Made by a program: the position numbers and the translations under genes. From the NCBI GenBank assembly GCA_041660065.1, contig JBAZXC010000006.1, positions 4,984 to 68,983 of the forward strand: DNA of 64,000 nucleotides, in the 5' to 3' direction. Positions 463 through 33,310 of the stretch are shown here, piece by piece (within the stretch, counting starts at the first letter, position 1; every line of letters begins with the position of its first letter). The notes under the pieces were generated by a model. That model was not told the DNA's origin and did no database searches. It saw only the letters and a program-made list of their open reading frames with translations. This DNA is from Parcubacteria group bacterium (GTDB lineage: Bacteria > Patescibacteriota > Minisyncoccia > Moranbacterales > GCA-2747515).

Positions 463-509
463 ACGGTTTGAACCCAGCTCGCGTACCACTTTAAACGGCG
501 AACAGCCGT

Positions 510-567
<58 letters not shown>

Positions 568-598
568 ACTCCGTCGATGTGAACTCTTGGGAGTGATA

Positions 599-629
<31 letters not shown>

Positions 630-789
630 ATGATCTTCCACACTCCTACAAGTGATGGTCGGTTCACTAACTTCTACTTTCGTAACTGAGCGACTTGCTT
701 GTCTTTCAGTAAAGCTGGTTTATGCGTTTGCACTATCGGCCCGATGTCCATCCGGACCTAACCAACCTTTGTAAACGCCTCCGTTACAT

Positions 790-821
<32 letters not shown>

Positions 822-1331
822 ACCAGGCACTGTTCCTGCACCGGTAGCTATATTCAACACGAGTAGTAAATTTAGTAGTACTTTTTAATCATCAGACGAG
901 TCTTATAAAATAAAATTTTATAAGCAGTTAGTGAATTCTTTTAAGTGAAAATTTTCCACGTCAAAGATCCCTCCGTACAAAACATTCTAAAAAACGCTTT
1001 GTTTTACGAAGGGCTTCACTACTCGCCTGTTGATCATATGTACCTTTGAATTTACACTCTGTAAAATACACCTAACGGTGCAAGGTTAGAATCAAAACTT
1101 CAGCAGGGTGGTATTCCACTGTTGACTCCACCGCTCCCTAAAGAGCAGCTTCAAAGTCTCCCACCTATTCTCGGCAACTAAAACTCTAATTCAATGCCAA
1201 GCTGTAGTAAAGCTCCACGGGGTCTTTTCGTCTAGCTGTAGGTAGGGGGCATCTTTACCCCCATTGCAATTTCACCGAGCACCTGGTTGAGACAGTTCCC
1301 ATCTCGTTACACCTTTCATGCGGGTCGGAAT

Positions 1332-1363
<32 letters not shown>

Positions 1364-2809
1364 GATTATAGTTATCGCCGACGTTCACTGGCGCTTCGGG
1401 GATCCGCGTAAACTTCTCCCGTTAACGTTCCAGCACTGGTCAGGTGTCACCCCCTATACATCCTCTTACGAGTTAGCAGAGAGTTGTGTTTTTGGTAAAC
1501 AGTCGAATGGGCACTTTAGCTTCGTCCAGCACCTATTTCAAAAATGATCGTCAAAATTTTTAACATTCATGAGCGATAGCGACTGCATCTTTTATCACTA
1601 TCAAATCTCTATGATCATCTCTAAAATAGGTGCTGGAAAGACATTTAGCGAACGTACGTCTAGCTTTTTTGCCGAGTTCCTTAACCAGGTCTCACTCATT
1701 CATCTTAGGCTACTCGCCCTATCTACCTGTGTCGGTTTACGGTACGGGTGTGTATATATTGAAGCTTAGAAGCTTTTCCTGGTACCCTGCTCACTACTAT
1801 TAATTCCTCCGAAGAGAAACGACTGTCCATATCTCGGATTATTGTATGGCGGATTTGCCTACCATACATCCTCAATACGTCCACATCAATCCAATAAGAT
1901 GCAGTAGCTACAAGAATACGTCACTCCATCGCATATATACACAGTGCAGGAATATTAACCTGCTGTCCATCGACTACGCCTTTCAGCCTCGCCTTAGGAC
2001 CGACTAACCCTGGGATGATTGCCATTGCCCAGGAAACCTTAGATTTTCGATGTGCACGGATCTCACGTGCATTGCGGTTACTCATTCCAGCATTCTCACT
2101 TCCTTGCGTTCCACCGGTGGTCACCCATCCGGCTTCGGCACACAAGGAACGCTCTCCTACCACTTGTAGATAAATCTACAAATCCGCATCTTCGGTATTA
2201 TACTTGAGCCCCGTTACATTTTCGGCGCAAGATCTCTAAACTAGTGAGCTATTACGCTTTCTTTAAAGGATGGCTGCTTCTAAGCCAACCTCCTAGGTGT
2301 CTGAGAAATCTCACTTCCTTTTCCACTGAGTATAAATTTTGGGACCTTAGATTGCGATCTGGGCTTTTTCCCTTTTGAACTACGAGCTTAGCCCCGTAGT
2401 TCTGACTGCCGCTGTACGATCATGAGCATTCGGAGTTTGGTTGAGCGCCCTACCTTGCGGCGGGAACTCATTCAGTAGCTCTACCTCCCATGATTAATTA
2501 AAGCGACGCTAGCCCTAAAGCTATTTCGGAGAGAACCAGCTATTGCCGAGCTCGATTGGAATTTCTCCTCTACGCACAAGTCATCCCCTGATGTTGCACA
2601 GTCAGTGGGTTCGGGCCTCCCACAACTTTTACATTGTGTTCACCCTGCTCATGCGTAGCTCGCCCGGTTTCGGGTCTAGTTCCTATGACATATTCGCCTG
2701 TTACAGCTCGCTTTCACTATGCATCGGTTACAGAGTAACTTATGCAAGCCATAGAAAACTAACTCGCTGGATCGTTCTACAAAAAGCACGCAGTCACCCC
2801 TCACCCAAA

Positions 2810-3070
2810 TTACTCTAAACTTTCTTTGACATGTTTTATCAATTGATATTTTGCCTTACCATTATGCTTCAAACGATATTCTCTCGTCCGTGCGGCACTG
2901 AGCGTTATCCACGACTCATAATAAACAATTTTCCAATGATGTGATTTTGTTGATCTGTTTTGACCACTGTTATGTGAATCAAAACGCTTTTTCAAATCAC
3001 TTGTACATCCGACGTAGAAAACTTCTCTATCATCAGTTGCTTGCAAAGCATAAACATAATGCATACGCAT
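2810..3070 (-). CDS. GIY-YIG domain protein, YhbQ/UPF0213-like, 86 aa, encoded inside the 23S helix-25 IVS
   Basis: MRMHYVYALQATDDREVFYVGCTSDLKKRFDSHNSGQNRSTKSHHWKIVYYESWITLSAARTREYRLKHNGKAKYQLIKH. GIY (YVYAL), YIG (FYVGCT) and R..EHN.G motifs are present, with a C-terminal REY..K block like YhbQ/YazA. Same strand as the rRNA. Confidence 0.65.
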   Translation of the reverse strand: MRMHYVYALQATDDREVFYVGCTSDLKKRFDSHNSGQNRSTKSHHWKIVYYESWITLSAARTREYRLKHNGKAKYQLIKHVKESLE

Positions 3071-3089
3071 ATATTTATACAGTTAAAAT
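2812..3089 (-). other. Intervening sequence (IVS) inserted in the loop of 23S helix 25 and closed by a 15-bp extended helix. Almost its whole length is an ORF.
   Basis: In rRNA sense ...GGAGCCCCTCACCCAAATT is the revcomp of 3090..3104. A 278-nt insert follows. AATTTGGGTGAGGGGTGACTGCGT (revcomp of 2797..2811 onward) then resumes the conserved GUGACUGCG of helix 25. The two arms are perfectly complementary. Too short for a group I intron; the position matches the classic RNase III-excised IVS site of Salmonella/Leptospira. Confidence 0.6.
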
Positions 3090-3159
3090 AATTTGGGTGA
3101 GGGGCTCCTACTCTTTGTTAGCGTATAGTTTCAGTTCTATTTCACCTCCCTCTACGGGA

Positions 3160-3201
<42 letters not shown>

Positions 3202-4110
3202 TGAGACAATATTTAGTCTTGGAAGTTAGTGCTCCCGGATTCAGACGGGGTTTCTCCGGCCCCGCCCTACTTGAGAATAAACTCACCTATTATTTTTTCT
3301 TTTCGTGTACAGGACTTTTACCTTTTATAGTCACACTTTCCAGAGTATTCCACTAAGAAAAAATTATTGGCCCCGCTCTAAGCGAGTCCGCTCATCTCGC
3401 AACCCCGTTCCTAATAAAAGAAACGGTTTAGACTGTTCCGCTTTCGCTCGCCACTACTGACGGAATCTCATATTGATTTATATTCCTCCTGGTACTAAGA
3501 TGTTTCAATTCCCAGGGTTTGCTTTCATAACCTATGAATTCAGTTATGAATTTCCACTTGCGTGGAAGGATTGCTCCATTCGGACATCTCCGGTTCACAG
3601 CTTGTTTGGTAGCTCCCCGAAGCTTTTCGCACCCAACTACGTCCTTCATCGCTCGTCTCAGCCAAGGCATCCACTATACGCCCTTTGTAACCTCTTTCTT
3701 TTATTTCATCAAAATCTATAAAGAATTGACAATTAAGAGAAACTTAACTGCAATTTTTATATCATTCAACAAAATTTAATGAGTGTATTGTTCATTTGAT
3801 CTTTTGGGTCAAATGAAATTGCTTAACCTATTTGTTGCTTTCTTCTGATATGACCACACATGTGTTCCGCAACAAATATGCGCGTCATTCAAAAATTTAT
3901 ATGCAGTTGTGAAAGTTCACACGTGCCTTGCCGTAGCTCACAAAAGCGACAGTAGGTTCTGCGGAAACAAGTAAATCTCTTTCACCATGTTTCCGCACAA
4001 CATTCTTTCATGTTTCAAACAAACAAAAAACGAGACATGTGCCTATATGTATTCTCGCTTGCGTCGCTCTTTCTCCGGCCGCACTTGACGTCCTCAGAGC
4101 AGTACTACCT

Positions 4111-4546: not shown

Positions 4547-5458
4547 TTATGAAACTGTTTTTATAGCGCGTATTTGGTCACACAAAATTTGCGACTTTTT
4601 GCCAGATGCCTCTGCATAATCATCACCAGAGCTGGCAAAAATAATATCGGAGCTTGAATTGATCGCGATCGATCCGGGACCGGCATAAGCCGCTTTTATC
4701 GTTTCTTCCACAAAACCGCCTTGCGTACCAACACCGGGAATCAGAAACCACAGACCACTGCCAACGATCTGCCGACATTTCGACAAATGTTCGGAAAAAA
4801 TTTCTCCAGAACCTTTGAAGGTTTCGTATGCAGCTGCCATGACAAGTCCGGCATTTTCATTCACGCCGATCTCCCATGCCCACCGCAAAATCGTTTTGGC
4901 AATGAATTCCCAATATTGTCGCCCATCAGCAAGCAATACATCCTGGACTTCCCGCGCCTCTGGATTACTTGTGTAACAAAGTCCCACAATCGCTCGTCCC
5001 GGATGTGCAGGATCAAATAACGGCTTCATACAACTGCTACCCATATACGGCGAGAAATTCATCCCATCTACGCCATCGATCTCAAAGTGCGCAATACGAT
5101 AACGTTCTTGTGTTCTACCGATATCACCTCGTTTACAATCCAGGAAAACCGGAATATCGGGATAGAATTTGTGAATATAGCTCACGATTTTTTGGAGAGC
5201 TTTATCACCACCGCGAAATGCCTCATAATGCGCCTTCTGCAGTTTGAACATTGATGCGAATGGAGCGGTTGAATCTACAATATCAATCATCCACTGCGCG
5301 ATCGCCTTCCAGTCAGACGAAATCCAAAACTTCTTTCTGAGACAATGCGGCAACTTTTCTGGTAACGGATCCAGACCAACACATACAAGAGAGTTTATCT
5401 CCAATTGTCTCCTTGCAAGTTTTGCTCGAAATCCTTCTTCTTTTGCGCTTTCCACCAT
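4547..5458 (-). CDS. pyrF: Orotidine-5'-phosphate decarboxylase, long (type 2) form
   Basis: VCVGLDP, FLDCKRGDIG and LIPGVGTQGG motifs; 303 aa. Confidence 0.8.
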   Translation of the reverse strand: MVESAKEEGFRAKLARRQLEINSLVCVGLDPLPEKLPHCLRKKFWISSDWKAIAQWMIDIVDSTAPFASMFKLQKAHYEAFRGGDKALQKIVSYIHKFYPDIPVFLDCKRGDIGRTQERYRIAHFEIDGVDGMNFSPYMGSSCMKPLFDPAHPGRAIVGLCYTSNPEAREVQDVLLADGRQYWEFIAKTILRWAWEIGVNENAGLVMAAAYETFKGSGEIFSEHLSKCRQIVGSGLWFLIPGVGTQGGFVEETIKAAYAGPGSIAINSSSDIIFASSGDDYAEASGKKSQILCDQIRAIKTVS

Positions 5459-11669: not shown

Positions 11670-11743
11670 GTTCTGGTAGCTCAATTGGATAGAGCGTCTG
11701 GTTTCGGCCCAGGAGGTTAGAGGTTCAAGTCCTCTCCAGAACA
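11670..11743 (+). tRNA. tRNA-Arg (anticodon UCG)
   Basis: Hand-folded cloverleaf: acceptor GTTCTGG/CCAGAAC (7 bp, perfect), D-stem GCTC/GAGC, anticodon stem TCTGG/CCAGG, loop TTTCGGC (U33, anticodon TCG), T-stem AGAGG/CCTCT with a TTCAAGT loop. Confidence 0.8.
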
Positions 11744-14463: not shown

Positions 14464-16050
14464 TCACTTTATTTCTTCCCATAAATCCATTGCATACGTA
14501 CTTCCTGTAGGAAACATTGGCGGTGGACTATACAAAAGATTGCCATCAAAATACAAATTGCGCGTTTCAAAACCCAATGGTCTATTTGCACCATCACACC
14601 ATGCCGTTCCCACATAACCAAAATTCATGCGTGTATTAGTAGCAATTGCACCATAAAGCGTGATCGTATCCTTGCAATCATTCCAATTATCACGACCAAT
14701 ACGCCCGTATTGCGACAAAAGCACGGCATCAATTTTTAATTCATAACGTTCATCGCTATTGCTCACAGAGTGCAATCCCTCACTATTTCTCACAAGTTCA
14801 ATATTTCCCTCTGCAGCCAAACCGAGTACGCAATCACTATCTCGATCCTCATATTCAATATCATCCATACCAATGAACATACGCGGTTGCACAGAATCCT
14901 CATCATGTGCGGCAATCGTTAACTTCATACCTTCTGGCAATTTTCCCTCAATCCACACATTATCCCGCACGTAAACGATTGCCGTTTCTTCTGCATCAAG
15001 ATTTTTGATTATCGGATCTTCAGGAGCACATACATCATCCCATCCCCACGTTCTGCATGTTCCATTCCATTTATACCGCAAGCATACCCACTCTTGATGG
15101 CATGACTCCACAAATGTCGGCGTGTAATTACTATCAAAGCTCTGTACCCTACGCAATTCCATTGTCCCCTTGGTTGGATCTGATCCATCAACTTTCAACT
15201 CAATATATCGTCCTTGATACGAATTATCAAAATATGTGTTGTCAACAATCGCCAGCTCACGCATTTCATCAAAATTTGCTGTAACACTATTAAAATCTTG
15301 CACGGAAACAGGAAAACGCTTACCTGCTTGAAAAACTTTTTTATGCAAAGTAATATTATACTCATCTGTCCAGTTAGTCCATACACCCGGTCGTGTAATA
15401 CCCGTATCTGGATCCTGATAAGTTGTCTTAGAGCTTGTAACAATATTATATGCAACACCGTCAAAGCGAAATCCACCATTCACATGCATTGGACCGTACA
15501 CCACGGTACCTTCGCTTAAACGCGTGTCTGCATTGGCAAGAATAGCAAATTCACTCCATGACGGTTTGCGTTGACGCGCTCGTATCGTACGTGTTTTGGT
15601 TATGCCAGAAGATGTCGCCGTTCCCTCAGATTGGATGTGTAAAACCGTAGAATATGTTTGTGGTGGTGTAATGCAAATCTTATATTGTCCTATGCCCTCA
15701 TAATTTGCCACATACGCCTCTGTACCATCACCATCGCCATCTGCAGTGTCCGGATCATCACAGTCTCCATCACCATTATCATCTTGTCCTAATGGATCTC
15801 CATCCCAAAAATCCTGAATTTGACTTGCGGTCTTTCCTTCAATATTATGTGCCAAATACCACCGATAAAAAAATATTCCGGCCTCCGCAATATGAAATGC
15901 CTGTTGATCTGATTCCAATGTCGTATTGTATTTGACATGTGCAACAACAAGTTGAATCGTTCCCGCAAACAATACACTTGCCGCCGCAATTACCATAAGT
16001 ACATACACTAAAGCGGAGCCACTATATCTTCTTGTATGAGAATGCATCAT
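14464..16050 (-). CDS. PilX-N-like minor pilin / pilus-associated protein with an acidic D/G-rich calcium-binding-like loop
   Basis: N-terminal hydrophobic helix RRYSGSALVYVLMVIAAASVLFAGTIQL (PilX_N-like, no E at +5), DDNGDGDCDDPDTADGDGDG loop; 528 aa. Confidence 0.45.
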   Translation of the reverse strand: MMHSHTRRYSGSALVYVLMVIAAASVLFAGTIQLVVAHVKYNTTLESDQQAFHIAEAGIFFYRWYLAHNIEGKTASQIQDFWDGDPLGQDDNGDGDCDDPDTADGDGDGTEAYVANYEGIGQYKICITPPQTYSTVLHIQSEGTATSSGITKTRTIRARQRKPSWSEFAILANADTRLSEGTVVYGPMHVNGGFRFDGVAYNIVTSSKTTYQDPDTGITRPGVWTNWTDEYNITLHKKVFQAGKRFPVSVQDFNSVTANFDEMRELAIVDNTYFDNSYQGRYIELKVDGSDPTKGTMELRRVQSFDSNYTPTFVESCHQEWVCLRYKWNGTCRTWGWDDVCAPEDPIIKNLDAEETAIVYVRDNVWIEGKLPEGMKLTIAAHDEDSVQPRMFIGMDDIEYEDRDSDCVLGLAAEGNIELVRNSEGLHSVSNSDERYELKIDAVLLSQYGRIGRDNWNDCKDTITLYGAIATNTRMNFGYVGTAWCDGANRPLGFETRNLYFDGNLLYSPPPMFPTGSTYAMDLWEEIK

Positions 16051-21398: not shown

Positions 21399-23121
<1,723 letters not shown>

Positions 23122-23185
23122 TCCTCTCCTTATTGTAGCGAATTTCAATTCCATGTCAAGAGAAAATACAAAAAAAGAATTTTCC

Positions 23186-23225
23186 AAATTAAAAACACCC
23201 CATACAATCACGATTGCATGGGGTG
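23186..23225 (-). terminator. Rho-independent terminator downstream of the His/Pro-rich small secreted protein gene
   Basis: CACCCCATACAATCACGATTGCATGGGGTG hairpin with a T-tract on the minus strand. Confidence 0.55.
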
Positions 23226-23241
23226 TGAATGGGCAAATGCC

Positions 23242-23628
23242 CTAATAATCTTCATACACCCACCGATACTTCCGGGTGTGATATCCGTTCCACCAGCCTG
23301 TGCGCACTTTGAGCACATAACCAGGACCGGGACACGGTGGCGGATTAAAAACCCACGGGAAATTAATAGGTCGAGGAAAAGGCAATGCAATTTCCGGTCC
23401 CCCACAATACCGGTGGTGACGGACAAAGGTGGGTGGTGGGTGGTGGCGGAAATGTCGCCCTCCATGATAAAACGGGAGACGATGCCGAAAAGTCTGTCCA
23501 CCTCCATAGTGCGACGGGGGTTGAAAATGATGTCCTCCTCCGTGTATTGGTGGTGGCGGAAAACCCCAACCAATAGACGGGATCACTAGGGACAAAAAAC
23601 CGATTGCTACTACAATGAGCTTTTTCAT
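23242..23628 (-). CDS. Small secreted His/Pro/Gly-rich protein (128 aa)
   Basis: Start taken at the internal ATG, 5 nt downstream of AAGGAG. MKKLIVVAIGFLSLVIPSIGWG signal, then GFPPPPIHGGGHHFQPPSHYGGG...RHFRHHPPP, and a C-terminal W..YH..KYRWVYEDY. Confidence 0.5.
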   Translation of the reverse strand: MKKLIVVAIGFLSLVIPSIGWGFPPPPIHGGGHHFQPPSHYGGGQTFRHRLPFYHGGRHFRHHPPPTFVRHHRYCGGPEIALPFPRPINFPWVFNPPPCPGPGYVLKVRTGWWNGYHTRKYRWVYEDY

Positions 23629-23926
23629 TTTTTCTCCTTGCTTCCTTTTTTTGATACATCTCCAATTGACACACGCCGATGGAAAAGAACATTCCTCAAA
23701 TATATTACTCGTTATAAAAGAATTTTGACGATTTGTCAATTACAAAACCGCAAATATAAAAACCCGTGTCATTCCCGTGAAGCTTGTCCTCGAGAAATTG
23801 GGGAACGGGAATCCAGAATTATATATATTCAGTAAATATTTTACAAAGATACGGTTTTCAAATTGGTGATAAAAAAATAAAAGCGCCAATCTGCTGATCA
23901 ACGCTTTTTACCCCCACCCAAAGAAT

Positions 23927-24393
23927 TCACTCACCCTCAGCCTCCTCATCATCTTCCCCTTCAGGAATGGTGATGAATTGCTTTATTTGCTGGCCATTCC
24001 CCAGATCCAAAACCCGTGTTAAATTTTCAAATCCTGGCGGAGCGTTGGGCGGATTTTTTCTGTCATATTTTTTCCATTGCCGTTCGCCCTCTGGAATGAA
24101 ATGAAACTGGACAACCCGTCCATTTTCCACTTCAACCTCCCGCAGTTCTATGGCATATCCCTGTGGCAGATTGATCCAGCCGCCATGATATTTCCGCCAT
24201 GCCCTGAGATGTGAGTCGTCAATGATAACATGACGCTCGACAACCGGTGGTGGCGGAGGCACCTGCCCTTCGATCTCCACCGGAACAGGAATGGGAATAA
24301 ATATCGGTGGCGGAAGAGGCGGACGCGGAAAACAAAATCCGCTCGTCGCAAAAAAGAAAATGGAAACGAAAATGAAAAAAGAAGTCCTCTTCA
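23927..24393 (-). CDS. Small secreted Pro-rich protein (155 aa), possible paralog of 23242..23628
   Basis: Start at the internal ATG after AAGAGG. MKRTSFFIFVSIFFFATSGFC signal, FPRPPLPPPIFIPIPVPVEIEGQVPPPPPV, W.KYHGGW motif, acidic tail. Almost abuts the upstream lipoprotein gene (3-nt gap). Confidence 0.5.
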
Positions 24394-24396
24394 TGT

Positions 24397-24957
24397 CTAA
24401 TACCTCTTTGTCTTCGGTTTCTTTGGAGTAACAGGTGGTGCGTACGCTATTTCCGTCTCGTTCCACTCACTGCCCCTGACGATTTCCCACTGCTTGGTAC
24501 GCGGATCATAACATGCATCCGCGTCAACAGTTGTTTTGTAAATCGTCCCATCAACGGCTGTTTTTTTGGAAACAACCTTTGATGTCATACATTCCTCGCC
24601 GATGTACGATCTGAATTCATTGCCATACGCGCGAGTGGGCCTGTAGTGCATGCCCGGCTCAAATACTACGCTTGAACCATCTGCAGCCACCCAACTGCCC
24701 GGCGCATTTGATTGGTATGCAACAGCCAATCGTTCCTGATCGCTCTTTGCAAGCTGTTGATAGTACTTTATTTTTGCTACACTTTCTGCGATTTTGAATC
24801 CGAGATTGACGCCTTCGGCCACTGTGTTGGCAACCTGCATTACCCTGCCGGCTGCATCAATGGCACGGAGTGCTCTGTCCGGATTGCATCCGGTCATCAA
24901 AAAAACCGCCACAATCACACATGTAACTGCACAAATCCTTCCCTTTTTTATGTTCAT
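24397..24957 (-). CDS. Lipoprotein (186 aa)
   Basis: Start at ATG after AGGAG. MNIKKGRICAVTCVIVAVFLMTGC carries a lipobox (LMTGC). Confidence 0.55.
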   Translation of the reverse strand: MNIKKGRICAVTCVIVAVFLMTGCNPDRALRAIDAAGRVMQVANTVAEGVNLGFKIAESVAKIKYYQQLAKSDQERLAVAYQSNAPGSWVAADGSSVVFEPGMHYRPTRAYGNEFRSYIGEECMTSKVVSKKTAVDGTIYKTTVDADACYDPRTKQWEIVRGSEWNETEIAYAPPVTPKKPKTKRY

Positions 24958-25085
24958 CTTTGCTCCTCTCTTTTGATTTTTCAAGCAATTCCGCCTATCG
25001 GAATCACAAAAAAATAAAATGGTGTAAAAGAACTACGATTTTCGAGTATAGCATAATAATAAAAATCTGTCAATCATCGTTGTCC

Positions 25086-25121
25086 ACAGCCAAAAAGCGA
25101 GATCTTGCCTCGCTTTTTTTC
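25086..25121 (-). terminator. Bidirectional-looking rho-independent terminator
   Basis: AGCGAG-ATCTTGC-CTCGCT hairpin flanked by an A-tract and a T-tract; 15 nt downstream of the 25133 gene end. Confidence 0.5.
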
Positions 25122-25132
25122 GTAATCACGCT

Positions 25133-25699
25133 CTAATTTTGTCGTCCCTCGATTGCCGCGATCAGTACTGCGGCAGCAATACCAATGCGCCGATCAATGA
25201 TACTCGGCCATTGCGTTAGATCGATCTCCAGTTTATAGATAAACGGATTGAATCGCTGGCGAATATCTGCCACACGCACACCACTGATCATGAGATCATA
25301 ATTTTGCGGGATCAAATTCAGGATCAACCGCCGCACAAGTGCCAGTCCCAGAGAATCCTCAATGCATACACCGATCTCCTGATCGTTTTTATCCATCACG
25401 ATCCATTCATCACGCACGAGAGCATTCCATCCCTTGCGTTTGAATGCACCAATCTTCTCTCCCGTCTTGCTATCCACCACATCATACGCGGCAGAAAAAT
25501 CCAAAATCTCTCGTGTGTGAATAAGCATCACTTCATCTGTCTTATTTTCGTCTGCGTACAATCGAATATCTTCTCTCAACTTAAACGCTTTTTGCGCCGC
25601 ATGGAGTATCATCACGCCATTTTCATCAAAAATATCGAATCGCGCACCCATGAGTTTGAACACCTTCCGACGAAGCATGTACTTTTCGTTTTGGATCAT
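25133..25699 (-). CDS. LURP-one-related (DUF567)/tubby C-terminal-like fold protein
   Basis: 188 aa; pattern F.I.DENG....gk.f.L...i.L.D..g..l..i..k...W.v.....i.....D.Y.L.I matches the LOR family by eye (low certainty). Confidence 0.35.
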   Translation of the reverse strand: MIQNEKYMLRRKVFKLMGARFDIFDENGVMILHAAQKAFKLREDIRLYADENKTDEVMLIHTREILDFSAAYDVVDSKTGEKIGAFKRKGWNALVRDEWIVMDKNDQEIGVCIEDSLGLALVRRLILNLIPQNYDLMISGVRVADIRQRFNPFIYKLEIDLTQWPSIIDRRIGIAAAVLIAAIEGRQN

Positions 25700-25733
25700 T
25701 ACCTTATTATTAATAATATTTTTTTAAAAAACC

Positions 25734-26216
25734 TCACATTGATTTATCCATAGCATCATAAAGGGTTTTCAATTCTACAAATTTTTCCTGATACTTCACG
25801 AGAGCACCTTTCATTTCTGCAAGTTCTTCCTCTTGCCTCGCTATATCTTCCTGCAACATCTCAATACGACCCTGACGCTCCTGAATTTCCCTCAACATCC
25901 CTTCCTTCTGTCCCGCATTCTTCTGATCAACGGTCATATTTTCCTGTCGTTCAAAATGCGCATCATAAGGACCCCGCAGTTCATCTGATAATAAATGACC
26001 ACTTTTGTTTTTGCCCAGAATCTTATCCATCACTGGTCGTTGACTATCCTCTTTACGTCTTATTTCCTCAGCCAGCGCATTCGCAATTTCTGTTTCCCTG
26101 ATCGCACTTTTTCTCACAAACCCACCCTCTGGCAAATCAGCATACTTCTCTTTTTCTTCTCCCGGCAGATCTTTCACCGATTTATATTTTGGATCATACG
26201 GATCGAAATTTTCCAT
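25734..26216 (-). CDS. Hypothetical coiled-coil protein
   Basis: 160 aa, rich in E/K/R/Q heptad-like sequence (EIQERQGRIEMLQEDIARQEEELAEMKGALVKYQEKFVELK). Confidence 0.4.
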   Translation of the reverse strand: MENFDPYDPKYKSVKDLPGEEKEKYADLPEGGFVRKSAIRETEIANALAEEIRRKEDSQRPVMDKILGKNKSGHLLSDELRGPYDAHFERQENMTVDQKNAGQKEGMLREIQERQGRIEMLQEDIARQEEELAEMKGALVKYQEKFVELKTLYDAMDKSM

Positions 26217-26372
26217 AGCCTTAGCCTTAAATTATTTATTACTGTAAGTATAGATCACTTTTGGATCGCTTACAATTGTTTCATTTTGCACAAAATATCA
26301 TATGCACAACAAAAAAGGAGCGAATTATACTAAATTCGCTCCCAAAGACTCCATTTGCATTTTGATCATGTG

Positions 26373-26642
26373 TCATGGGCTCCACTCTTGTCCGGCTCCA
26401 ATGATCGCCCACAGCATAAAGGGCGGAACGATAAGGACAAGGAACGCCACATCGAATACTCTTTGCCACAGCAATGCACCTACAAAAAACAACCACCCGA
26501 TAACCACCGCAACCGCAAAAACAAGCAACATGCCAAACAGCACATTCATGATCATCGTTTTGATCTTTTTCTTCTCATCGCCATACGCGTGTGCCATATG
26601 TTCCCCCTTTAAAAAGTTTTTAAAAAACTTGTCTGACATCAA
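26373..26642 (-). CDS. Small membrane protein (2 TM)
   Basis: MLLVFAVAVVIGWLFFVGALLW and VAFLVLIVPPFMLWAIIGA segments. The start may be the downstream MAHAYGD. Confidence 0.4.
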   Translation of the reverse strand: MMSDKFFKNFLKGEHMAHAYGDEKKKIKTMIMNVLFGMLLVFAVAVVIGWLFFVGALLWQRVFDVAFLVLIVPPFMLWAIIGAGQEWSP

Positions 26643-26676
26643 ATAGATAGATTATGCCGTACACAACTATGCAACA

Positions 26677-26775
26677 AACTTTTGTCATTCTGAACTTGTT
26701 TCAGAATCTCAAAATTATGACTTATATAGATACTGAAACAAGTTCAGCATGACATAAATATTAAATGAGCTCCGT
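26677..26775. repeat. About 100-nt palindromic repeat element, copy A (two hairpins in inverted orientation plus a conserved tail AATATT.AATGAGCTCCG)
   Basis: About 89% identical to 46197..46296 over ~98 nt. Arms are TGTCAT(T/C)CTGAACTTGTTTCAG(A/G)ATC and GAT(A/G)CTGAAACAAGTTCAGCATGACA. T->C and A->G differences between the copies preserve pairing. Confidence 0.7.
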
Positions 26776-27270
26776 ATCATATATTTTAACATCCATCGCA
26801 TAGCGCTTCAAAAAACGCAGGAAATCTTTTGTAGAAATTTTGAGTGATGCCGTGTTGCGAAACGGATGGAAATGCACAGACGCATAATCAAAAATTTCTT
26901 TATCCACCACAACACCCACTTCTCCGGCGTTTTCATGAATGAGACCAAACGGCGTCACGGACCCCGGCGTAAGTCCGAGATTATTTTCCAAGCGATCCGC
27001 TGATGCAAAACCCATCTTGCGATGCTCGCCCAAGAATTCCGCCAGATGCGGGATATCGATATTTTTTTGCGCACACAATATGACGAGATAATGCTTGCGT
27101 CCGCGACGATTTTGCATAAAAGCATTTTTGCAATCCACCCCCATATCATGATCGCGATAAAAACTCCCCGACGCCTCCACCGTCCCAAAAGCCGGATGTT
27201 CGAATTTTTCATAAGGAATATTCATTTCATCCAATATTTTATATAATTTTTGTTCGTATAGATCTGCCAT
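26761..27270 (-). CDS. YbaK/ProX-family aminoacyl-tRNA deacylase (prolyl-tRNA editing domain protein)
   Basis: MADLYEQKLYKILDEMNIPYEKFEHPAFGTVEASG...HYLVIL...LGLTPGSVTPFGL. The track ORF extends 40 codons upstream through two REP hairpins (EQVVKPAPA duplicated), so the start is taken at the internal Met. The last 4 codons overlap the palindromic repeat element. Confidence 0.55.
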   Translation of the reverse strand: MADLYEQKLYKILDEMNIPYEKFEHPAFGTVEASGSFYRDHDMGVDCKNAFMQNRRGRKHYLVILCAQKNIDIPHLAEFLGEHRKMGFASADRLENNLGLTPGSVTPFGLIHENAGEVGVVVDKEIFDYASVHFHPFRNTASLKISTKDFLRFLKRYAMDVKIYDTELI

Positions 27271-27307
27271 GCATTTTTTTAAAAATTCAAAACTTTTACC
27301 TACCGCA

Positions 27308-27373
27308 GGAGCAGGTTTTATAACCTGCTCCAACCTTTTCCACTTTGCAGGAGCAGGTTTTACAACCTGCTCC
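27308..27373. repeat. Two REP hairpins (27308..27331 and 27350..27373), GGAGCAGGTTTT(A/T)(T/C)AACCTGCTCC, immediately 3' of the RAYT gene
   Basis: 10-bp perfect GC-rich stems with 4-nt loops. The same unit recurs at 27967, 28020 and 28742. Confidence 0.75.
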
Positions 27374-27379
27374 GAACTT

Positions 27380-27877
27380 TTATAGCTCATCCACTTTCAG
27401 TTCACATAACTCATTCGCCGAAGACCAATACCAATCTTCCGGCTTCATCACATAATTCTTTCTGACAGGATTATTATGCATATATGTTAACTTATTTTGG
27501 AAAAAAGATTCCAATCCTATACATTTCGGCATATTGGTTTTTTGCCAAAACTCATAATTTCCTTTCTGGTCTAAAAATAACTTCAGAACCGTCGGTTCGT
27601 TTTTAATAAGATTTTTTCTAAATTCTCCGGATGTAAATCGCTTGAAATCGCGTACAAAACCGGACACATCCGGTGACTGAACGATCACGTGAATATGATT
27701 GAGTATAAAAACAAAACCGTATAATTTTAATCCTTTATGTTCTCGACAATATGCGAGAGAATCAGCCAAAATATGCCACCGATGATGACGGTCGAAAAGA
27801 TAATACCATCTTGCAACAGTCATGGTTAAAAAATATATATCTTGATTGAAATCTTTTGATATACGTACTGATGGCAT
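27380..27877 (-). CDS. REP-associated tyrosine transposase (RAYT; IS200/IS605-like Y1 HUH transposase, TnpA_REP)
   Basis: YFLTMTVARWYYLF N-terminus, HUH motif LNHIHVIVQ, catalytic Tyr region NYEFWQK...LTYMHNNPVRKNYVMKPEDWYWSS (Y.H.NPV...PEDW.WSS signature); 165 aa; flanked on both sides by REP hairpins. Confidence 0.75.
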   Translation of the reverse strand: MPSVRISKDFNQDIYFLTMTVARWYYLFDRHHRWHILADSLAYCREHKGLKLYGFVFILNHIHVIVQSPDVSGFVRDFKRFTSGEFRKNLIKNEPTVLKLFLDQKGNYEFWQKTNMPKCIGLESFFQNKLTYMHNNPVRKNYVMKPEDWYWSSANELCELKVDEL

Positions 27878-27966
27878 GAGCCTATTTTAACACAATCACA
27901 AAAACACAAAAGAGGGTTTTTCTATTGGCGGTTTGTTACCTGTGACGGAATATTCACAATTTTGCA

Positions 27967-28043
27967 GGAGCATAGTTGTACTATGCTCCGTAATGTTTAT
28001 TATGTGAGATAAAATGAAAGGAGCAGGTTATAAAACCTGCTCC
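27967..28043. repeat. Two REP hairpins 5' of the RAYT gene: a variant GGAGCATAGTTGTACTATGCTCC (27967..27989) and GGAGCAGGTTATAAAACCTGCTCC (28020..28043)
   Basis: Same architecture as the 3' REPs. The variant copy has compensatory stem changes (CATAG/CTATG). Confidence 0.7.
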
Positions 28044-28049
28044 TGCGAG

Positions 28050-28090
28050 ATAAATTTAAAACCAGACCTCACACGCGTGCGAGATCTGGT
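28050..28090 (-). terminator. Rho-independent terminator for gene 28099..28599
   Basis: CCAGACCTC-ACACGCGTGC-GAGATCTGG hairpin, followed on the minus strand by TTTTAAATTTAT. Confidence 0.5.
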
Positions 28091-28098
28091 ATAGTGTT

Positions 28099-28599
28099 TT
28101 ACATCACTTTATTTGCCACCACCAAATCGGTAGCGGACCCCTCAATATCGAAGTACTTCCGAAGAATTTTAATCTTTTCTTCCAGTTCACCGATGCACTT
28201 TTTGAGATTTTCTTGATCCAAGTTGTTTAATGGATCTGTCGTAAACCCCAACACACCATCCTTGAAGATTCCCGTCGCATGGATGAATTGCAAATTTCTG
28301 ATCATACTATTCCACTCAGAGTTGAGCAAAATTTTAATCTTTTCATCAGAGTCATGATCAATGCCAATCTGGCTTTGTGCAAATTTGAGTATGCGGACCG
28401 AATGCTCCGCATGACTGATCTTTGCGATCTCACTCAAACGATACACGGCAAATGATTTTTTCTCCTCAGCCTGTGACATTGGCTGTGACATTGGCGGCGT
28501 GGAAACAAATGAGACAATAAGTCTGCCTAGAAAAATGCCCAACAACAATGCCAGACCGATAACAAAAAGCCATTTTACTTTTCTCCCTTGATTTTTCAT
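28099..28599 (-). CDS. Hypothetical membrane-anchored protein (166 aa) embedded between REP clusters
   Basis: Start at ATG after AGAGGAGG. MKNQGRKVKWLFVIGLALLLGIFLGRLIVSFV anchor; no recognisable domain. Confidence 0.4.
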   Translation of the reverse strand: MKNQGRKVKWLFVIGLALLLGIFLGRLIVSFVSTPPMSQPMSQAEEKKSFAVYRLSEIAKISHAEHSVRILKFAQSQIGIDHDSDEKIKILLNSEWNSMIRNLQFIHATGIFKDGVLGFTTDPLNNLDQENLKKCIGELEEKIKILRKYFDIEGSATDLVVANKVM

Positions 28600-28741
28600 T
28601 GGATGTAACCTCCTCTTTTTATTGAAAAAATCAACTATATTAAATAACTCCATATGAATTGATACAACCGTCCATTGTACACCTAAATCGTCATTTTGTC
28701 AATATTTCTGCAACATTATTCAATAGTAAAAAAAGCTCGCA

Positions 28742-28765
28742 GGAGCAGGTTTTACAACCTGCTCC
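28742..28765. repeat. REP hairpin (fifth copy), GGAGCAGGTTTTACAACCTGCTCC, with a conserved 3' tail
   Basis: The ~55-nt block GCAGGAGCAGGTTTTACAACCTGCTCCGAACTTTT.ATA.CTCATCCACTTTCA is nearly identical to 27347..27400. Confidence 0.75.
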
Positions 28766-28822
28766 GAACTTTTCATAACTCATCCACTTTCAATTCTCTA
28801 CTCCCCAACTCCTACCCTTATA

Positions 28823-28850
28823 GTCCCGTCGCTCGCGAGCGACGGGACTG
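28823..28850. repeat. Perfect 28-nt palindrome AGTCCCGTCGCTCG|CGAGCGACGGGACT (copy 2 of the GTCGCTCGCGAGCGAC core)
   Basis: Perfectly self-complementary; ~50 nt downstream of ychF; no flanking T-tract on either strand. Confidence 0.6.
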
Positions 28851-28901
28851 ACGCCTAAAATCCTACTACTCCCTAACTTCTACTCCCTACAACCTAAAAA
28901 T

Positions 28902-29954
28902 CTACACTTTAAACTCCACCACATCACCCTCTTGCATGATATAATCTTTGCCCACTGTACGCAGTACACCCGTGTCACGTGCCTTGCTCCAACTCCCCGC
29001 TTCGATCAGTTTCTCCCAATTCACCACATCCGCACGGATAAATCGGTCTTTGAAATCATTGTGAATTGCCGCACCGGCTTCCGGTGCCGTGGAACCTTTT
29101 TTGATCGTCCATGCACGCGTTTCCACTTCGCCTGTTGTGAGAAATGTCTGCAGTCCGAGCAGTTCAAAAGATTTTGTAATGAGATCTTGCAGATGCGATC
29201 GCATACCGAGCTCTTCCGCTTCTTTTTTGCTCATCTCCATGAGCTCCTCTTCGATCTTGATGTCCAGTGCGACATGCGGTCGCGCGAGAAGTTTTGGATC
29301 CAATGCTGCGTCAAGGTCGGAGACGTTGTACACATACATGATCGGTTTCATCGTGAGGAGACTCATCTCTTGTATGATCTTTTTTGTCGGCTCATGCGTC
29401 AGATCAACCACAACTGTTCGCGCCAACTTTCCACTGTCCAGTGCATCTTTGATCTTTTGTACAATTTCTTTTTGTGCAGGTGCATCTTTATCATTCCCGC
29501 GTGCCAATTTTTCCAATCGCACGAGCGTCTTGTCCACTGTCACCATATCAGCGAGGATGAGTTCCATTTCGATGATCTCAATATCTCTCTCCGGATCGAC
29601 AATGTCATGCACGTGCGTGATCGTCTCCTTGACGAACACACGCACCACTTGCACGATCGCATCCACCTGACGAATATTCGCGAGAAATTTATTGCCCAAA
29701 CCCTCTCCCTCTGATGCACCCTTGACCAATCCTGCAATATCCACGAACTCGATGATCGTCGGCACAAGCTTCGTACAACCCGTAAGGTCTGCCAATCTCT
29801 GCAATCGCTCATCCGGCACAGTGACCACGCCGACATTCGGCTCGATCGTACAAAACGGATAGTTGCTGATGTCAACCTGCTTTTGTGTCAATGCTTTAAA
29901 AAGTGTGGACTTCCCGACATTCGGCAGTCCGACGATCCCTACTTGTAATCCCAT
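28902..29954 (-). CDS. ychF: Ribosome-binding ATPase YchF/Ola1 (Obg-family GTPase/ATPase with TGS domain)
   Basis: [15 protein letters not shown]-loop, NKFL and DAIVQVVR motifs, C-terminal TGS-like domain; 350 aa. Confidence 0.8.
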
Positions 29955-29957
29955 AAA

Positions 29958-30653
29958 CTAAACGCTCTTATAATATTTAACCACATCGTCAAATCCGTGT
30001 GCCACATGATCCGCTACGTCCATTACCTTGTCCCGCATCATGTGCTCTACAAATGCCACGAAATGATCTGCCGCTCCGGATTGCTTTACTTCATAATCCG
30101 TCCATCCATCCCCCACCATAATGACCTTACCCCCCAATTGCAACTGCTTCACCTGCAATGCCTTCCCTGACGGCTTGACCAAACAACTGTTCACATCATA
30201 GCCGATCACCTCCCCACGATCATCAAAGGCAAAACTATTTGCATGTACGTTCTGCGCATCGATCCCCAGTTCTGTCGCAACGGGTATGATGAAATCATAA
30301 AACCCCCCTGAGATGATATGAATGTTTTTATGATACTTTTTCAAAAAATCCCGATTCTTGAGTACCGACACCGTCACTGCGCGCATCACATGATCTTTGA
30401 ATGCCGTAATATCATCTCTGTGCAAATGCATCAATGCCAACCGCTGACTCAGAGACTGTGCAAAACTGATCTCACCTTGCATGCCCATTTCGGTGATCTC
30501 TTCGATCTTTTGTGCCAAGTCAACATCATATCCCGTGCGGCGCATCACAAACTTCGCCAGTTCATCCAGCGTTTCGATCGACACGATCGTACTGTCAAAA
30601 TCACAAATTAAATGTTTTTGCATAAAAATATATTTATGTTCTTCATTGTTCAT
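29958..30653 (-). CDS. serB: Phosphoserine phosphatase-like HAD hydrolase
   Basis: LICDFDSTI (DxDST motif I) near the N-terminus, GDGWTD motif IV. The true start may be Met11 (MQKHLICDFD). Confidence 0.6.
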   Translation of the reverse strand: MNNEEHKYIFMQKHLICDFDSTIVSIETLDELAKFVMRRTGYDVDLAQKIEEITEMGMQGEISFAQSLSQRLALMHLHRDDITAFKDHVMRAVTVSVLKNRDFLKKYHKNIHIISGGFYDFIIPVATELGIDAQNVHANSFAFDDRGEVIGYDVNSCLVKPSGKALQVKQLQLGGKVIMVGDGWTDYEVKQSGAADHFVAFVEHMMRDKVMDVADHVAHGFDDVVKYYKSV

Positions 30654-30708
30654 TATACACTACTCATTCTACTCGGATTGTGTCGGAAAATTCACAGATT
30701 GTCAATAT

Positions 30709-30782
30709 AAAATAAAAAAAGTCCGGGAAGAACTTATAAGATGATGTTCTGAACATTGTCAGATCTTATAGTCCTTACCCGG
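30709..30782 (-). terminator. Long-hairpin rho-independent terminator downstream of gene 30963..31826
   Basis: GTCCGGGAAG...CTTACCCGG extended imperfect stem, followed on the minus strand by CTTTTTTTATTTT. Confidence 0.5.
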
Positions 30783-30962
30783 AGCAGAAATCAGCGCAAA
30801 CTTGGCACTGACCATTTCCGACACAGTCGGATGTCCCACATAATTGCCCGTGGAAGACGACCAAGAAATGCAAAAATTTTTTTAATGTACTTCATCACAA
30901 ACCTCCCATTGTTAAGATTGCAGTATTTTCTAACACAAAAGTACCATGATTTGATTCAAAAG

Positions 30963-31826
30963 TCAACCTTTTTGATAGCAGCAATTTGGATACTTCTGTG
31001 CCAGTATTTCCAATTGATCGATCCAGTACATCTCTTCCACCGGCATCGATTCAAATGCCACATACGGCAATGAAAGACCGCCCGTCACATTGAACCAGAA
31101 CCACGCGAACGCCTCCAAATTACTACGCACCAACTTATAACTATTCCAATCCCTGCGAATCCGTTTCATCACATCATAATCGATCTTGACAATCTTGATG
31201 TGCGAATGAAGGAGTTCGACCAACATAATGATATATTCCTGCTGATCGGGAATCCGATGGCAAAATGTGCACAGATCATCAATATAGATCCGTATCCCTG
31301 TTTTTTTGCACACGTATGCCAGCTGTTGCATGGCGTGTGGCGATAATTGTGCATTTTCCTTGAGTTCCACATTTATCGGCACATTATCGCATGTGGAAAG
31401 AATCTCACACACTTCATTCCATGATCCCTCTGGACTTTCCAGATTTACCGAAAAGTACTGCCCCGGAATAACGTCCATGCTCCGGATGAACTCAACTTGC
31501 CAACGCAAAAGTAATGGGAACATTTTTTCCATCTTTTCTGCAGGCATCTCATTGAACGCCTTGCCTATGAGAAACTGTGGCAACAATTCCGGCTCACACC
31601 GCGTAAGAAGTTCTCCACCCAGATTTTGATATGCGATTTTTGGTATATTCTTACCTCGCGATATGTCGAGCACGCGTTGCGCTCGTATGCGCCATCTCCG
31701 ATCGATCGTAACCAGATCACCAATATGCGGAATCAATCGTTCTGGATAGTGCATCACAACATCGTATAACACCTCCCATGGTTCACAGTAGTTATCGTAG
31801 ACACTTTTTGGTTTATTCATCATCAC
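30963..31826 (-). CDS. Hypothetical protein (287 aa)
   Basis: Long ORF with no motif I can assign. Confidence 0.35.
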   Translation of the reverse strand: MMMNKPKSVYDNYCEPWEVLYDVVMHYPERLIPHIGDLVTIDRRWRIRAQRVLDISRGKNIPKIAYQNLGGELLTRCEPELLPQFLIGKAFNEMPAEKMEKMFPLLLRWQVEFIRSMDVIPGQYFSVNLESPEGSWNEVCEILSTCDNVPINVELKENAQLSPHAMQQLAYVCKKTGIRIYIDDLCTFCHRIPDQQEYIIMLVELLHSHIKIVKIDYDVMKRIRRDWNSYKLVRSNLEAFAWFWFNVTGGLSLPYVAFESMPVEEMYWIDQLEILAQKYPNCCYQKG

Positions 31827-31972
31827 CGCTCCTTAAGTTAGGTTGATGTATATTTTTTTGTTAATGATACTGATGTGATGTTATATCACAAAACATGTCA
31901 TTTGTAAATGGTGTATTTTTTCATTTTATATTCAGTGTTATACTTATCATATATCATTAAACACACCAAACT

Positions 31973-33310
31973 ATGCACCAAGAAATTTTTAAAGCATATG
32001 ACGTCCGCGGGATCTATCCTACGGAAATTGATGAGGATGCTGTTTACAAGATCGGTCATGCCGTTGTCGCAGAGCTCAGCGCCAAAACACTTGCCGTCGG
32101 ACGTGATGCGCGCGAATCCGGTCCGTCACTTCACACGGCTCTTCTCAATGGGATCACGGATGCTGGTTGTGATGTGGTTGACTTGGATATGATCACGACA
32201 CCGATGCTCTATTATTCTTCCCATGCACTTGATGTAGATGGTGCAGTTTCTGTCACGGCATCTCATAATCCGGGAGAATATAACGGCGTAAAGATCTGTC
32301 GCAGAGATGCCCAACCTGTCGGCAGTGCGACCGGACTCAACGACATCCGCGACGCAGTGATCGCCGGCACATTCACAAAATCCCACAGAAAAGGAACCGT
32401 CACCACATACAACATCCGCCCATCATACTATGAATACTTCAGTAAATTTGCTGCATTTGGAGATAAAAAATTCACGATCGTTGTGGACTGTGCCAACACC
32501 ATGGGTGTGCTAGAGCTTCCTTTTTACAAAAAATATTTTGCCGATAATTTCAACGTGATCGAGCTTTACTGCGACCTCACCAATGCATACAATGCACACG
32601 AGGCGAATCCACTGAAAACAGAAACGTTGCGAGAACTCCAAGAAAAAGTCATCGCCGAAAAGGCAGACCTCGGCATTGCCTATGACGGTGACGCCGATCG
32701 CATCGGATTTGTGGATGAGACTGGTGCAGTAATTCCTATGGATCTCACGACAGGGCTCATTGCTAAAGTGCTCCTTGAAAACAATATTGGCGCAACCATT
32801 CTCTATGATCTGCGATCATCGCGCGCAGTCAAAGAAGTGATCGAGGAGAGCGGTGGCATCGCACACGAATGTCGTGTGGGTCACGCATTTATCAAAGCGC
32901 AGATGCGTGAAGAAAACGCCCTCTTTTCCGGCGAACTATCCGGTCATTATTATTTCCAAGCAAACAAAAATGGTGAAGTAAGCACTCTCGCCGCATTCAC
33001 ATTGCTCAACTTGATGGCACAAACCGGTCAAAAAATCTCCGAACTCGTCGCTAACCTAAGACGCTATGCACACAGTGGAGAAATTAATTCCGAAGTGCAT
33101 GACAAGGATGCCGTCATTGCAACGCTCAAAGAAAAATTCAGCGACGGCACACTCAGCGAGCTCGATGGTATCAAAATCGATTACCCCGATTGGTGGTTCA
33201 ACGTCCGTCCGTCCAACACCGAACCCGTTCTCCGACTTAATTGTGAAGCAAAAACGCAAGAAATAATGGAACAAAAACGTGATGAACTCCTCGCAATCAT
33301 TCGCAGCTAA
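31973..33310 (+). CDS. Phosphomannomutase/phosphoglucomutase (alpha-D-phosphohexomutase family)
   Basis: TASHNPGEYNGVKI active-site Ser loop, GIAYDGDADR metal-binding loop, sugar-binding GEQSGH-like loop; 445 aa. Confidence 0.8.
   Translation: MHQEIFKAYDVRGIYPTEIDEDAVYKIGHAVVAELSAKTLAVGRDARESGPSLHTALLNGITDAGCDVVDLDMITTPMLYYSSHALDVDGAVSVTASHNPGEYNGVKICRRDAQPVGSATGLNDIRDAVIAGTFTKSHRKGTVTTYNIRPSYYEYFSKFAAFGDKKFTIVVDCANTMGVLELPFYKKYFADNFNVIELYCDLTNAYNAHEANPLKTETLRELQEKVIAEKADLGIAYDGDADRIGFVDETGAVIPMDLTTGLIAKVLLENNIGATILYDLRSSRAVKEVIEESGGIAHECRVGHAFIKAQMREENALFSGELSGHYYFQANKNGEVSTLAAFTLLNLMAQTGQKISELVANLRRYAHSGEINSEVHDKDAVIATLKEKFSDGTLSELDGIKIDYPDWWFNVRPSNTEPVLRLNCEAKTQEIMEQKRDELLAIIRS

Follow-up and report, generated by a model that had tools for sequence, protein, structure and literature searches.

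A probable REPtron in a Parcubacteria-group genome: an intact REP-associated tyrosine transposase gene and its flanking REP hairpins

Systems in which a REP-associated tyrosine transposase (RAYT) accompanies repetitive extragenic palindromic (REP) hairpins have, to our knowledge, been studied almost entirely in gamma-proteobacteria, and a literature search on RAYTs in Patescibacteria found nothing specific. A 64,000-nt stretch of a Parcubacteria group bacterium genome (GenBank assembly GCA_041660065.1, contig JBAZXC010000006.1, positions 4,984 to 68,983 of the forward strand; hereafter the window, whose own coordinates are used throughout) contains a small gene for a putative HUH/Y1 transposase with five similar hairpins around it. 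The question is whether this locus is a RAYT gene with its REPs, an insertion sequence of the IS200/IS605 type, a relic or an accidental neighbourhood. We conclude that it is very probably a REPtron, as the literature calls a tnpA_REP gene flanked by its REPs (PMC8266576), in which one intact RAYT gene of the HUH/Y1 type is combined with cognate REP hairpins. The features of the locus are as follows (R1 denotes the covariance model described below).

27380..27877, minus strand: RAYT (TnpA_REP) gene, 165 aa, intact; match to NF047646 and 4ER8-like predicted fold.
27304..27335, plus strand: REP a, tag CGCA, hairpin 27308-27331, loop TTAT; R1 29.6 bits, E 3.9e-5.
27346..27405, plus strand: REP b, tag TGCA, hairpin 27350-27373, loop TTAC; R1 32.5 bits, E 7.1e-6.
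27963..27993, plus strand: REP c, tag TGCA, variant stem GGAGCATAGT-TGT-ACTATGCTCC; R1 39.9 bits, REP c itself being one of the 46 training sequences of the model.
28016..28047, minus strand: REP d, tag CGCA, hairpin 28020-28043; R1 31.0 bits, E 1.7e-5.
28738..28798, plus strand: REP e, tag CGCA, hairpin 28742-28765, followed by a tail; R1 32.9 bits, E 5.6e-6.

The original prediction, made from the DNA letters, described a 165-aa open reading frame (ORF) with a HUH motif and the C-terminal signature TYMHNNPVRKNYVMKPEDWYWSS, and both are read in 27380..27877 on the minus strand, the former as LNHIHVIV. The HUH residues correspond to N60-H61-I62-H63 and the protein ends in WYWSS. Further motifs are W111-Q112 (WQ) and Y132-M-H-N-N136-P137 (YMHNNP), which places a catalytic-type tyrosine, Tyr132, in a Y---NP motif. 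The protein passed the NCBIfam equivalog model NF047646 (REP_Tyr_transpos) with 84.2 bits, over model positions 8-146 of 146, and a database search with it returned 569 relatives. The identical entry is a 147-aa 'hypothetical protein WC819_05690 [Parcubacteria group bacterium]' (P0001). Because the N-terminus of the 165-aa form, MPSVRISK, is kept in homologs, the longer start is the right one and the NCBI call begins too late; the consequence for annotation is routine, namely to name the gene RAYT and to shift its start 18 codons upstream. The next relatives are 55-75% identical and come from Moranbacteria and Paceibacterota, and also from Methylobacter, Jettenia, Kuenenia, Nitrospirota and Thiodictyon; annotation pipelines already give proteins of this kind the name RayT. 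All 32 columns that are invariant in an alignment of 24 homologs are kept in the window protein, with N60, H61, Tyr132 and N136 invariant and H63 and P137 nearly so.

A family profile built from this 24-sequence alignment had a sole match in the PDB, the E. coli TnpA_REP–REP complex 4ER8 (E 1.8e-6). The profile was needed, as a single-sequence phmmer search of the PDB with the window protein matched no RAYT structure. In the profile match Tyr132 aligns with chain residue 115 of 4ER8, and Y115F is the catalytic mutant of E. coli TnpA_REP (PMC8266576). The AlphaFold (AF2) model (pLDDT 88) led to the same structure, since Foldseek placed 4er8_A on top (E 1.3e-7, TM score 0.68, 16% identity in the structural alignment), followed by the TnpA proteins of IS200, IS608 and ISDra2 (2f4f, 2vhg and 2xma) with E 1.5e-4 or worse and TM scores of 0.45-0.51. 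The 2 kb on each side of the gene contain no ORF of tnpB size, and YchF is the sole ORF above 300 aa in the 25.5-30.5 kb interval; the neighbours are a YbaK-type tRNA_edit gene, a 166-aa orphan and YchF. In the published classification, class 2 TnpA_Y1 proteins are defined by Y---NP and subclass 1.1, IS200/IS605, by Y---Q (PMC6006769). As judged from its motifs and predicted fold, the protein is a RAYT and not a canonical IS200/IS605 TnpA, which is the grouping that the original prediction had proposed.

Around this gene, the hairpin GGAGCAGGTT-N4-AACCTGCTCC is present in four exact copies (at 27308, 27350, 28020 and 28742). No further copy with up to three mismatches was found in the 64 kb, and 0 of 100 shuffles of the window matched. 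A variant fifth hairpin at 27967-27989, GGAGCATAGT-TGT-ACTATGCTCC, forms a perfect stem of 10 bp, in which three positions are compensated, closed by a loop of 3 nt. The count of five, including one stem variant with compensatory changes, is thus as originally described; the description of all five as lying within 600 nt is wrong, for four are at most ~170 nt from the ORF and the fifth is ~865 nt from the start codon. Folded as single-stranded DNA, the five hairpins reach -9.9 to -12.1 kcal/mol (z = -5.5 to -9.6), with REP a at -11.5 kcal/mol (z -6.8). The sequence (C/T)GCA precedes every one of them and forms, together with the first stem base, a GCAG tag, which makes the REPs directional; from REP a to REP e they point +, +, +, - and +, the copy at 28020 alone being on the minus strand.

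The tags reveal an ordered layout. Downstream of RAYT, REP a runs antiparallel to the gene at a distance of 42 nt from REP b, and its 3' flank resembles the REP b tail with an internal deletion. The REP b hairpin is followed by a 32-nt tail that overlaps RAYT in its final 8 codons and stop. On the other side of the gene, REP c is antiparallel and 90 nt upstream of the start, and REP d is upstream and parallel. A perfect 28-nt inverted repeat (27304-27331 and 28020-28047) brackets the ORF, in the REPtron arrangement of an upstream REP parallel to RAYT and downstream REPs antiparallel to it, with the tags outermost. A covariance model built from the hairpins flanking ~45 homologous RAYT genes (46 training sequences) recovered exactly these five REPs in the window, with E <= 4e-5 and all within 1.5 kb of RAYT; the next match, at E = 0.12, is a hairpin with a T-run. 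As a candidate sixth REP, the hairpin 26317-26342 (GGAGCGAATT...AATTCGCTCC) was rejected because it lacks a tag, is followed by a T-run on the strand that codes for the upstream gene, and has a model E-value of 0.12; it is most likely the terminator of the gene 26373-26642.

Hairpins of the same type flank most of the 85 homologous RAYT loci that we examined (80 loci came from metagenomes and 3 from protein look-ups), which bears out the predicted REP–RAYT architecture, and the REPtron layout is shared by L061, L092, L104, L121, L122, L124 and most of L127-L206. From the 85 loci we took the 103 nearest flanking hairpins (78 distinct), oriented solely by the side of the gene on which they lie. 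Among the distinct hairpins the second tag position is G in 68/78, the third is C in 59/78 (T in 12) and the last is G in 74/78, giving a family tag G-C/T-N-G. The whole consensus runs N-G-C/T-N, a GG foot, a variable mid-stem, a GTT-TGY-AAC top and a CC closing foot. Stems vary freely among loci and are fully compensated (GGAGCAGGTT, GGTTCAAGTT, GGACGGGGTT, GGTTCGGGGT and others), with changes on both sides in 8 of 10 pairs and 125 covarying cells compared with 33 in shuffles. The variant stem of the window, GGAGCATAGT, flanks a Moranbacteria RAYT on both sides (L124, 9949-9973 and 10514-10538), GAGCATATT stands upstream of the RAYT in the Saccharibacteria locus L092, and the locus of the closest RAYT homolog (L121, 75% identical) has flanking GGAACGGGTT with the same TTAC loop.

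Searching by the stem instead of the protein, with one genome per species, yielded at least 120 loci, for which our own arithmetic gives ~2 chance matches in 596 Gb. Their tag-oriented loops include TGC (45), TGT (21) and TTCC (8) and none of the reverse complements, and asymmetric loops that all face one way provide independent evidence of REP direction. Among the matches listed, four stem-found loci carry RAYT homologs (in Moraniibacteriota, Myxococcales SURF_8, Saccharibacteria and Peregrinibacteria), and all four share the layout of the window, with a parallel upstream REP, antiparallel downstream REPs and outermost tags. In SURF_8 the matches listed comprise 14 REP copies in 13 fetched stretches on separate contigs, just one of which contains RAYT; since most copies have no RAYT nearby, the REP is truly dispersed in that genome. 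At 28 long-flank loci the density of strict tag-bearing perfect hairpins falls with distance from RAYT, from 2.6 per kb in the first 300 nt to 0.43 per kb between 300 and 1000 nt and 0.05 per kb farther out; a distant copy is present at 8 of these 28 loci. The hairpins belong to this RAYT family as its cognate REPs, and the REP family is low-copy.

Two of the fetched loci, L155 (400-3500) and L157 (1-2400), hold dense arrays in which the REP types GGGACGGGATT and CGGACGGGGCAACATGCCCCGTCCG alternate. These arrays, where the model has at least 20 matches in ~3 kb, resemble bacterial interspersed mosaic elements and are far denser than the window. The Moranbacteria locus L124 also contains a gene of the 23S_rRNA_IVP/bAvd family at 15197-15568, within an ATP synthase operon.

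A close relative without the transposase shows what the locus looks like in its absence. Contigs L207-L209 carry HAD, YchF, a homolog of the orphan (P0122), YbaK and LOR in the window's gene order and match window positions 33310..22000 over more than 10 kb of synteny, with 75-89% nucleotide identity; protein identities are 94.9% for YchF, 93.9% for HAD, 78.8% for YbaK and 35.5% for the orphan. Despite this shared gene order, RAYT is absent from L207-L209. The spacer between the orphan and YbaK measures 176 nt in L207 versus 825 nt in the window and holds one solo REP, GCAGGAGCAGGTTTTACAACtTGCTCC, in the position and orientation of REP d (L207 5546-5578 versus window 28049-28017, 91% match, in the same spacer and in the same orientation relative to the genes). 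The segment missing from L207 spans REP a to the variant REP c, both on the plus strand, and the REP e segment is not in the orthologous YchF–orphan spacer of L207. Divergence between the two orphan–YbaK spacers kept a global alignment from placing the RAYT segment's breakpoints, and a YGCA target at the empty site, a by-eye reading in an AT-rich stretch, is not claimed. RAYT, REPs a-c and REP e thus differ between two close lineages through either gain here or loss in the relative, and this relative without the gene shows that RAYT was recently gained or lost.

The gene enclosed between REP d and REP e had been described as an unrelated membrane-protein gene trapped between the REP clusters.

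28099..28599, minus strand: native bystander gene, 166 aa, start at 28599, N-terminal hydrophobic segment, between REP d and REP e.

Its product had no Pfam or NCBIfam match and a word-indexed search returned the protein itself alone, and an exhaustive phmmer search found 6 weak relatives among 1.8 billion representative proteins, among them P0122 (46% identical by phmmer). A TTGACA/TACAAT promoter of the orphan is kept in L207, and this conservation, with the synteny, marks the orphan as native; the idea of a trapped gene or a passenger of the element is thereby ruled out. Judging by these identities, the orphan is a very fast-evolving small native protein.

The position of REP e on the far side of this native gene raises the question of where it came from. 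As predicted, two copies share an extended tail: 27346-27405 and 28738-28798 are ~93% identical over ~60 nt, with three substitutions and one indel. The REP b tail, which past the hairpin is the end of the RAYT ORF, aligns with 28766-28798, and the REP e tail reads ELKVDEL* on the minus strand, as in the RAYT C-terminus. The final 24 nt of the RAYT ORF are present in REP e, which was therefore copied from the 3' REP of the gene together with adjacent DNA; it is a ~60-nt copy of REP b and the RAYT 3' end, located 1.39 kb away in the YchF–orphan spacer. Both substitutions in the RAYT-derived part of the REP e tail are synonymous Leu changes, two events being too few to argue for selection. A duplication of a REP plus the RAYT 3' end is also found in the Saccharibacteria locus L092, and dispersed REP copies in several genomes share tails of 8-25 nt.

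Other structures occupy the same spacers. Directly beside REP e, at 28822-28849, lies a perfect GC-rich palindrome (AGTCCCGTCGCTCG/CGAGCGACGGGACT) with a 12-bp stem and -15.3 kcal/mol. No other copy of it was found in the window or in 210 fetched loci, it is not in the orthologous spacer of L207, and the REP model gives it an E-value of 6.6. Downstream of YchF, 28797-28896 contains TCTACTCCC repeats on the plus strand (GGGAGTAGA as read on the coding strand); L207 has a comparable (T)AGTAGG-rich tract in the corresponding position (4790-4830), which identifies the tract as native and not part of the element. Likewise native is an inverted repeat at 26680-26757, between YbaK and the next gene, with 30-nt arms that are 90% complementary and an 18-nt spacer, as it is conserved in L207 (6180-6240).

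Does the gene itself move? RAYT genes with 96-99% nucleotide identity are found between unrelated flanking sequences, and in the clean cases (L151 4884-5583 versus L168 1203-1904, and L142 versus L149) homology ends a few nucleotides outside both REPs. In L189, two RAYT copies lie within 4 kb of each other. In this RAYT family the REP-RAYT-REP unit evidently moves or is exchanged as a block. A stronger proposal would be that the family (~165-168 aa, with NHIH, WQ and YIHNNP motifs and short perfect REPs tagged G-C/T-N-G) is a still-mobile REP-RAYT-REP unit and not a domesticated immobile gene, which moves among unrelated sites and many phyla including the candidate phyla radiation (CPR). The window would then represent a recent gain beside a resident solo REP, followed by a first daughter REP that took along 24 nt of the ORF. 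We put this forward tentatively, as an idea that may well be mistaken, and published opinion sees no evidence that tnpA_REP is mobile (PMC8266576). If it were true, the daughter REP e would show that copying begins at the gene's own 3' REP and takes flanking DNA with it.

Signs of movement also invite a reading as an autonomous IS200/IS605-type insertion sequence, in which the hairpins would be the element's ends and the whole unit would transpose. Consistent with it, the hairpins in the 64 kb are confined to the RAYT neighbourhood, the gene is present here and absent from a close relative, near-identical RAYTs have unrelated surroundings and share homology only as far as the outer REPs, L189 has its two neighbouring copies, and REP density drops from 2.6 per kb beside the gene to 0.05 per kb beyond 1 kb. 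This explanation nonetheless strikes us as improbable, because both sequence and fold are nearest to TnpA_REP, the tyrosine motif is Y---NP and not Y---Q (PMC6006769), no tnpB lies within 2 kb, and the flanking hairpins are mutually inverted, unlike those of IS608, which share one strand. Moreover, the REP often occurs without RAYT in other genomes and stands solo in L207, and REP e is a REP copy without the gene. Quite another reading is that RAYT is an inactive relic and that the host keeps the hairpins as transcription terminators or mRNA stabilisers between co-directional genes. It draws on the genes from YchF to YbaK, which are all on the minus strand with REPs in their spacers, on a run of seven T's 7 nt after REP e on that strand, at the site of a post-YchF hairpin and T-run in L207, and on the fit of REP b, REP c and REP d to a loose terminator pattern. 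A full-length RAYT with every family-invariant residue kept, including the HUH and Tyr132, argues against it, as do four of five REPs without a proper T-run on the coding strand, and a terminator role leaves unexplained why tag, loop and orientation to RAYT are conserved across phyla; we consider a relic very improbable. Perfect hairpins are common in the window (18 with a stem of at least 9 bp versus ~1 in shuffles), which could suggest that the hairpins are unrelated to the ORF and adjoin it by chance; four identical copies where 0 are expected, and the recurrence of the association in most of the 85 homologous loci, refute this.

Several points also weigh against the REPtron that we favour. 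The conserved 5' GT(A/G)G tetranucleotide that the original prediction proposed as a check, and that defines REPs, is replaced by GCAG in all five. The ~62.5 kb of the window outside the 1.5-kb RAYT neighbourhood contain no REP, where ~3 distant copies would be expected at 0.05 per kb. Of the profile checks proposed at the outset, the RAYT model was passed, if narrowly (84.2 bits for a cut-off of 80), and Pfam PF01797 (Y1_Tnp) gave 19.9 bits, under the gathering cut-off of 23; a precomputed PF01797 match is present in many close homologs. Finally, the hairpins used for covariation had been chosen beforehand for perfect stems of 8 bp or more, so that the figure of 99.6% paired is circular and the informative part is the diversity of stems at equivalent positions.

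A REPtron would work here as outlined for E. coli, whose TnpA_REP binds the folded REP strand and not its complement, requires the tag and cuts at CT 5' or 3' of the REP; where REPs are short and perfect, recognition hinges on particular loop positions and reads the mid-stem mainly as structure (PMC8266576). By analogy, the window enzyme would bind the REP strand folded as a single-stranded DNA hairpin. Recognition would read the 5' GCAG tag, the two G-C pairs of the foot and the T-first loop, and not the mid-stem. Cleavage may then take place nearby through Tyr132 with a HUH-bound metal, and rejoining of strands would copy or move REPs. We infer the catalytic activity of RAYT and its cleavage sites from this analogy.

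The locus is a compact CPR case, comprising one gene, five REPs, a RAYT-less relative that keeps one REP, and a daughter REP traceable to the gene's 3' end, and it bears on how REPs are copied and on whether the RAYT gene itself ever moves. Together with the family-wide tag and loop, the covarying stems and the near-identical units, it offers a simple substrate set for the study of REP recognition and copying.

Elsewhere in the window, a 23S rRNA match at 401-3697 on the minus strand covers 3297 nt for a 2925-position model and so includes ~370 additional nt. Neither 16S nor 5S rRNA was reported for the window, whose one tRNA is at 11670-11743. GC skew is negative in every 2-kb bin (mean ~-0.19). 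The identified genes between 25.1 and 30.7 kb all lie on the minus strand; of the five REPs, four are read on the C-rich plus strand.

How, then, does the locus compare with known systems? It shares with the TnpA proteins of IS200/IS605 elements (IS608, ISDra2) the HUH/Y1 fold, the single-stranded DNA hairpin ends and a tetranucleotide in the 'guide' position 5' of the hairpin foot. The Y---Q motif, the placement of both end hairpins on one strand, the tnpB gene (frequent in these elements, not obligatory) and multiple identical copies are not seen in the window. The E. coli K-12 REPtron (TnpA_REP/RayT = YafM with y and z REPs; 4ER8; Bertels group 2, Quentin subclass 2.2) likewise consists of a single ~165-aa HUH/Tyr enzyme whose gene is bracketed by inverted REPs, with more than one REP subfamily beside the gene and a directional tag plus hairpin. 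It differs in its REPs, which are long, bulged, GTAG-tagged and present in ~600 copies per genome (PMC8266576), whereas those of the window are short, perfect 10-bp stems tagged GCAG.

By motif, the window family (NHIH, WQ, YMHNNP, in the family YIHNNP/YIHENP, and WSS) resembles subclass 2.6, which is Bertels group 5 (NH[LIV]H, WQ, YIH[QN]NP and a C-terminal 'SS'), and subclass 2.4, or group 4 (NH[IFV]H, WQ, YIxNNP). Published REPs with GT[AG]G belong to subclasses 2.2, 2.4, 2.5, 2.7 and 2.8, and atypical ones without it to subclass 2.6 and class 3 (PMC6006769); flanking repeats are low-copy in RAYT groups 1, 4 and 5 (Bertels et al., PMC5581495). Subclass 2.6 is alike in lacking GT[AG]G and in its low-copy repeats; it differs in that its members are reported mostly from Bacteroidetes and its structures as weak and atypical. 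Subclass 2.4 differs in having long or 'double-foot' GT[AG]G REPs and genes with REPs inserted in them. The Quentin 2018 supplements list no genus in which this RAYT family occurs, so that the subclass is assigned by motif alone; on that footing the window RAYT fits 2.6 or 2.4 best, and its strong 10-bp GCNG-tagged hairpins fit neither description. In the group 3 or subclass 2.5 REPtrons of Pseudomonas, Stenotrophomonas and Marinomonas (Mb) the REPs are likewise short and perfectly palindromic; their proteins carry DH[LF]H and YI[VI]ANP where the window has NHIH and YMHNNP, and their REPs are GTAG-tagged and number hundreds to thousands of copies. The loop-critical recognition reported for them (PMC8266576) matches the conserved T-G-Y loop and the free stem covariation of the window family. 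RAYT distribution is patchy overall, consistent with horizontal transfer (PMC6006769). Set among these systems, the locus is an ordinary example of a known element, distinguished by a non-canonical tag, a low REP copy number and signs of recent mobility.

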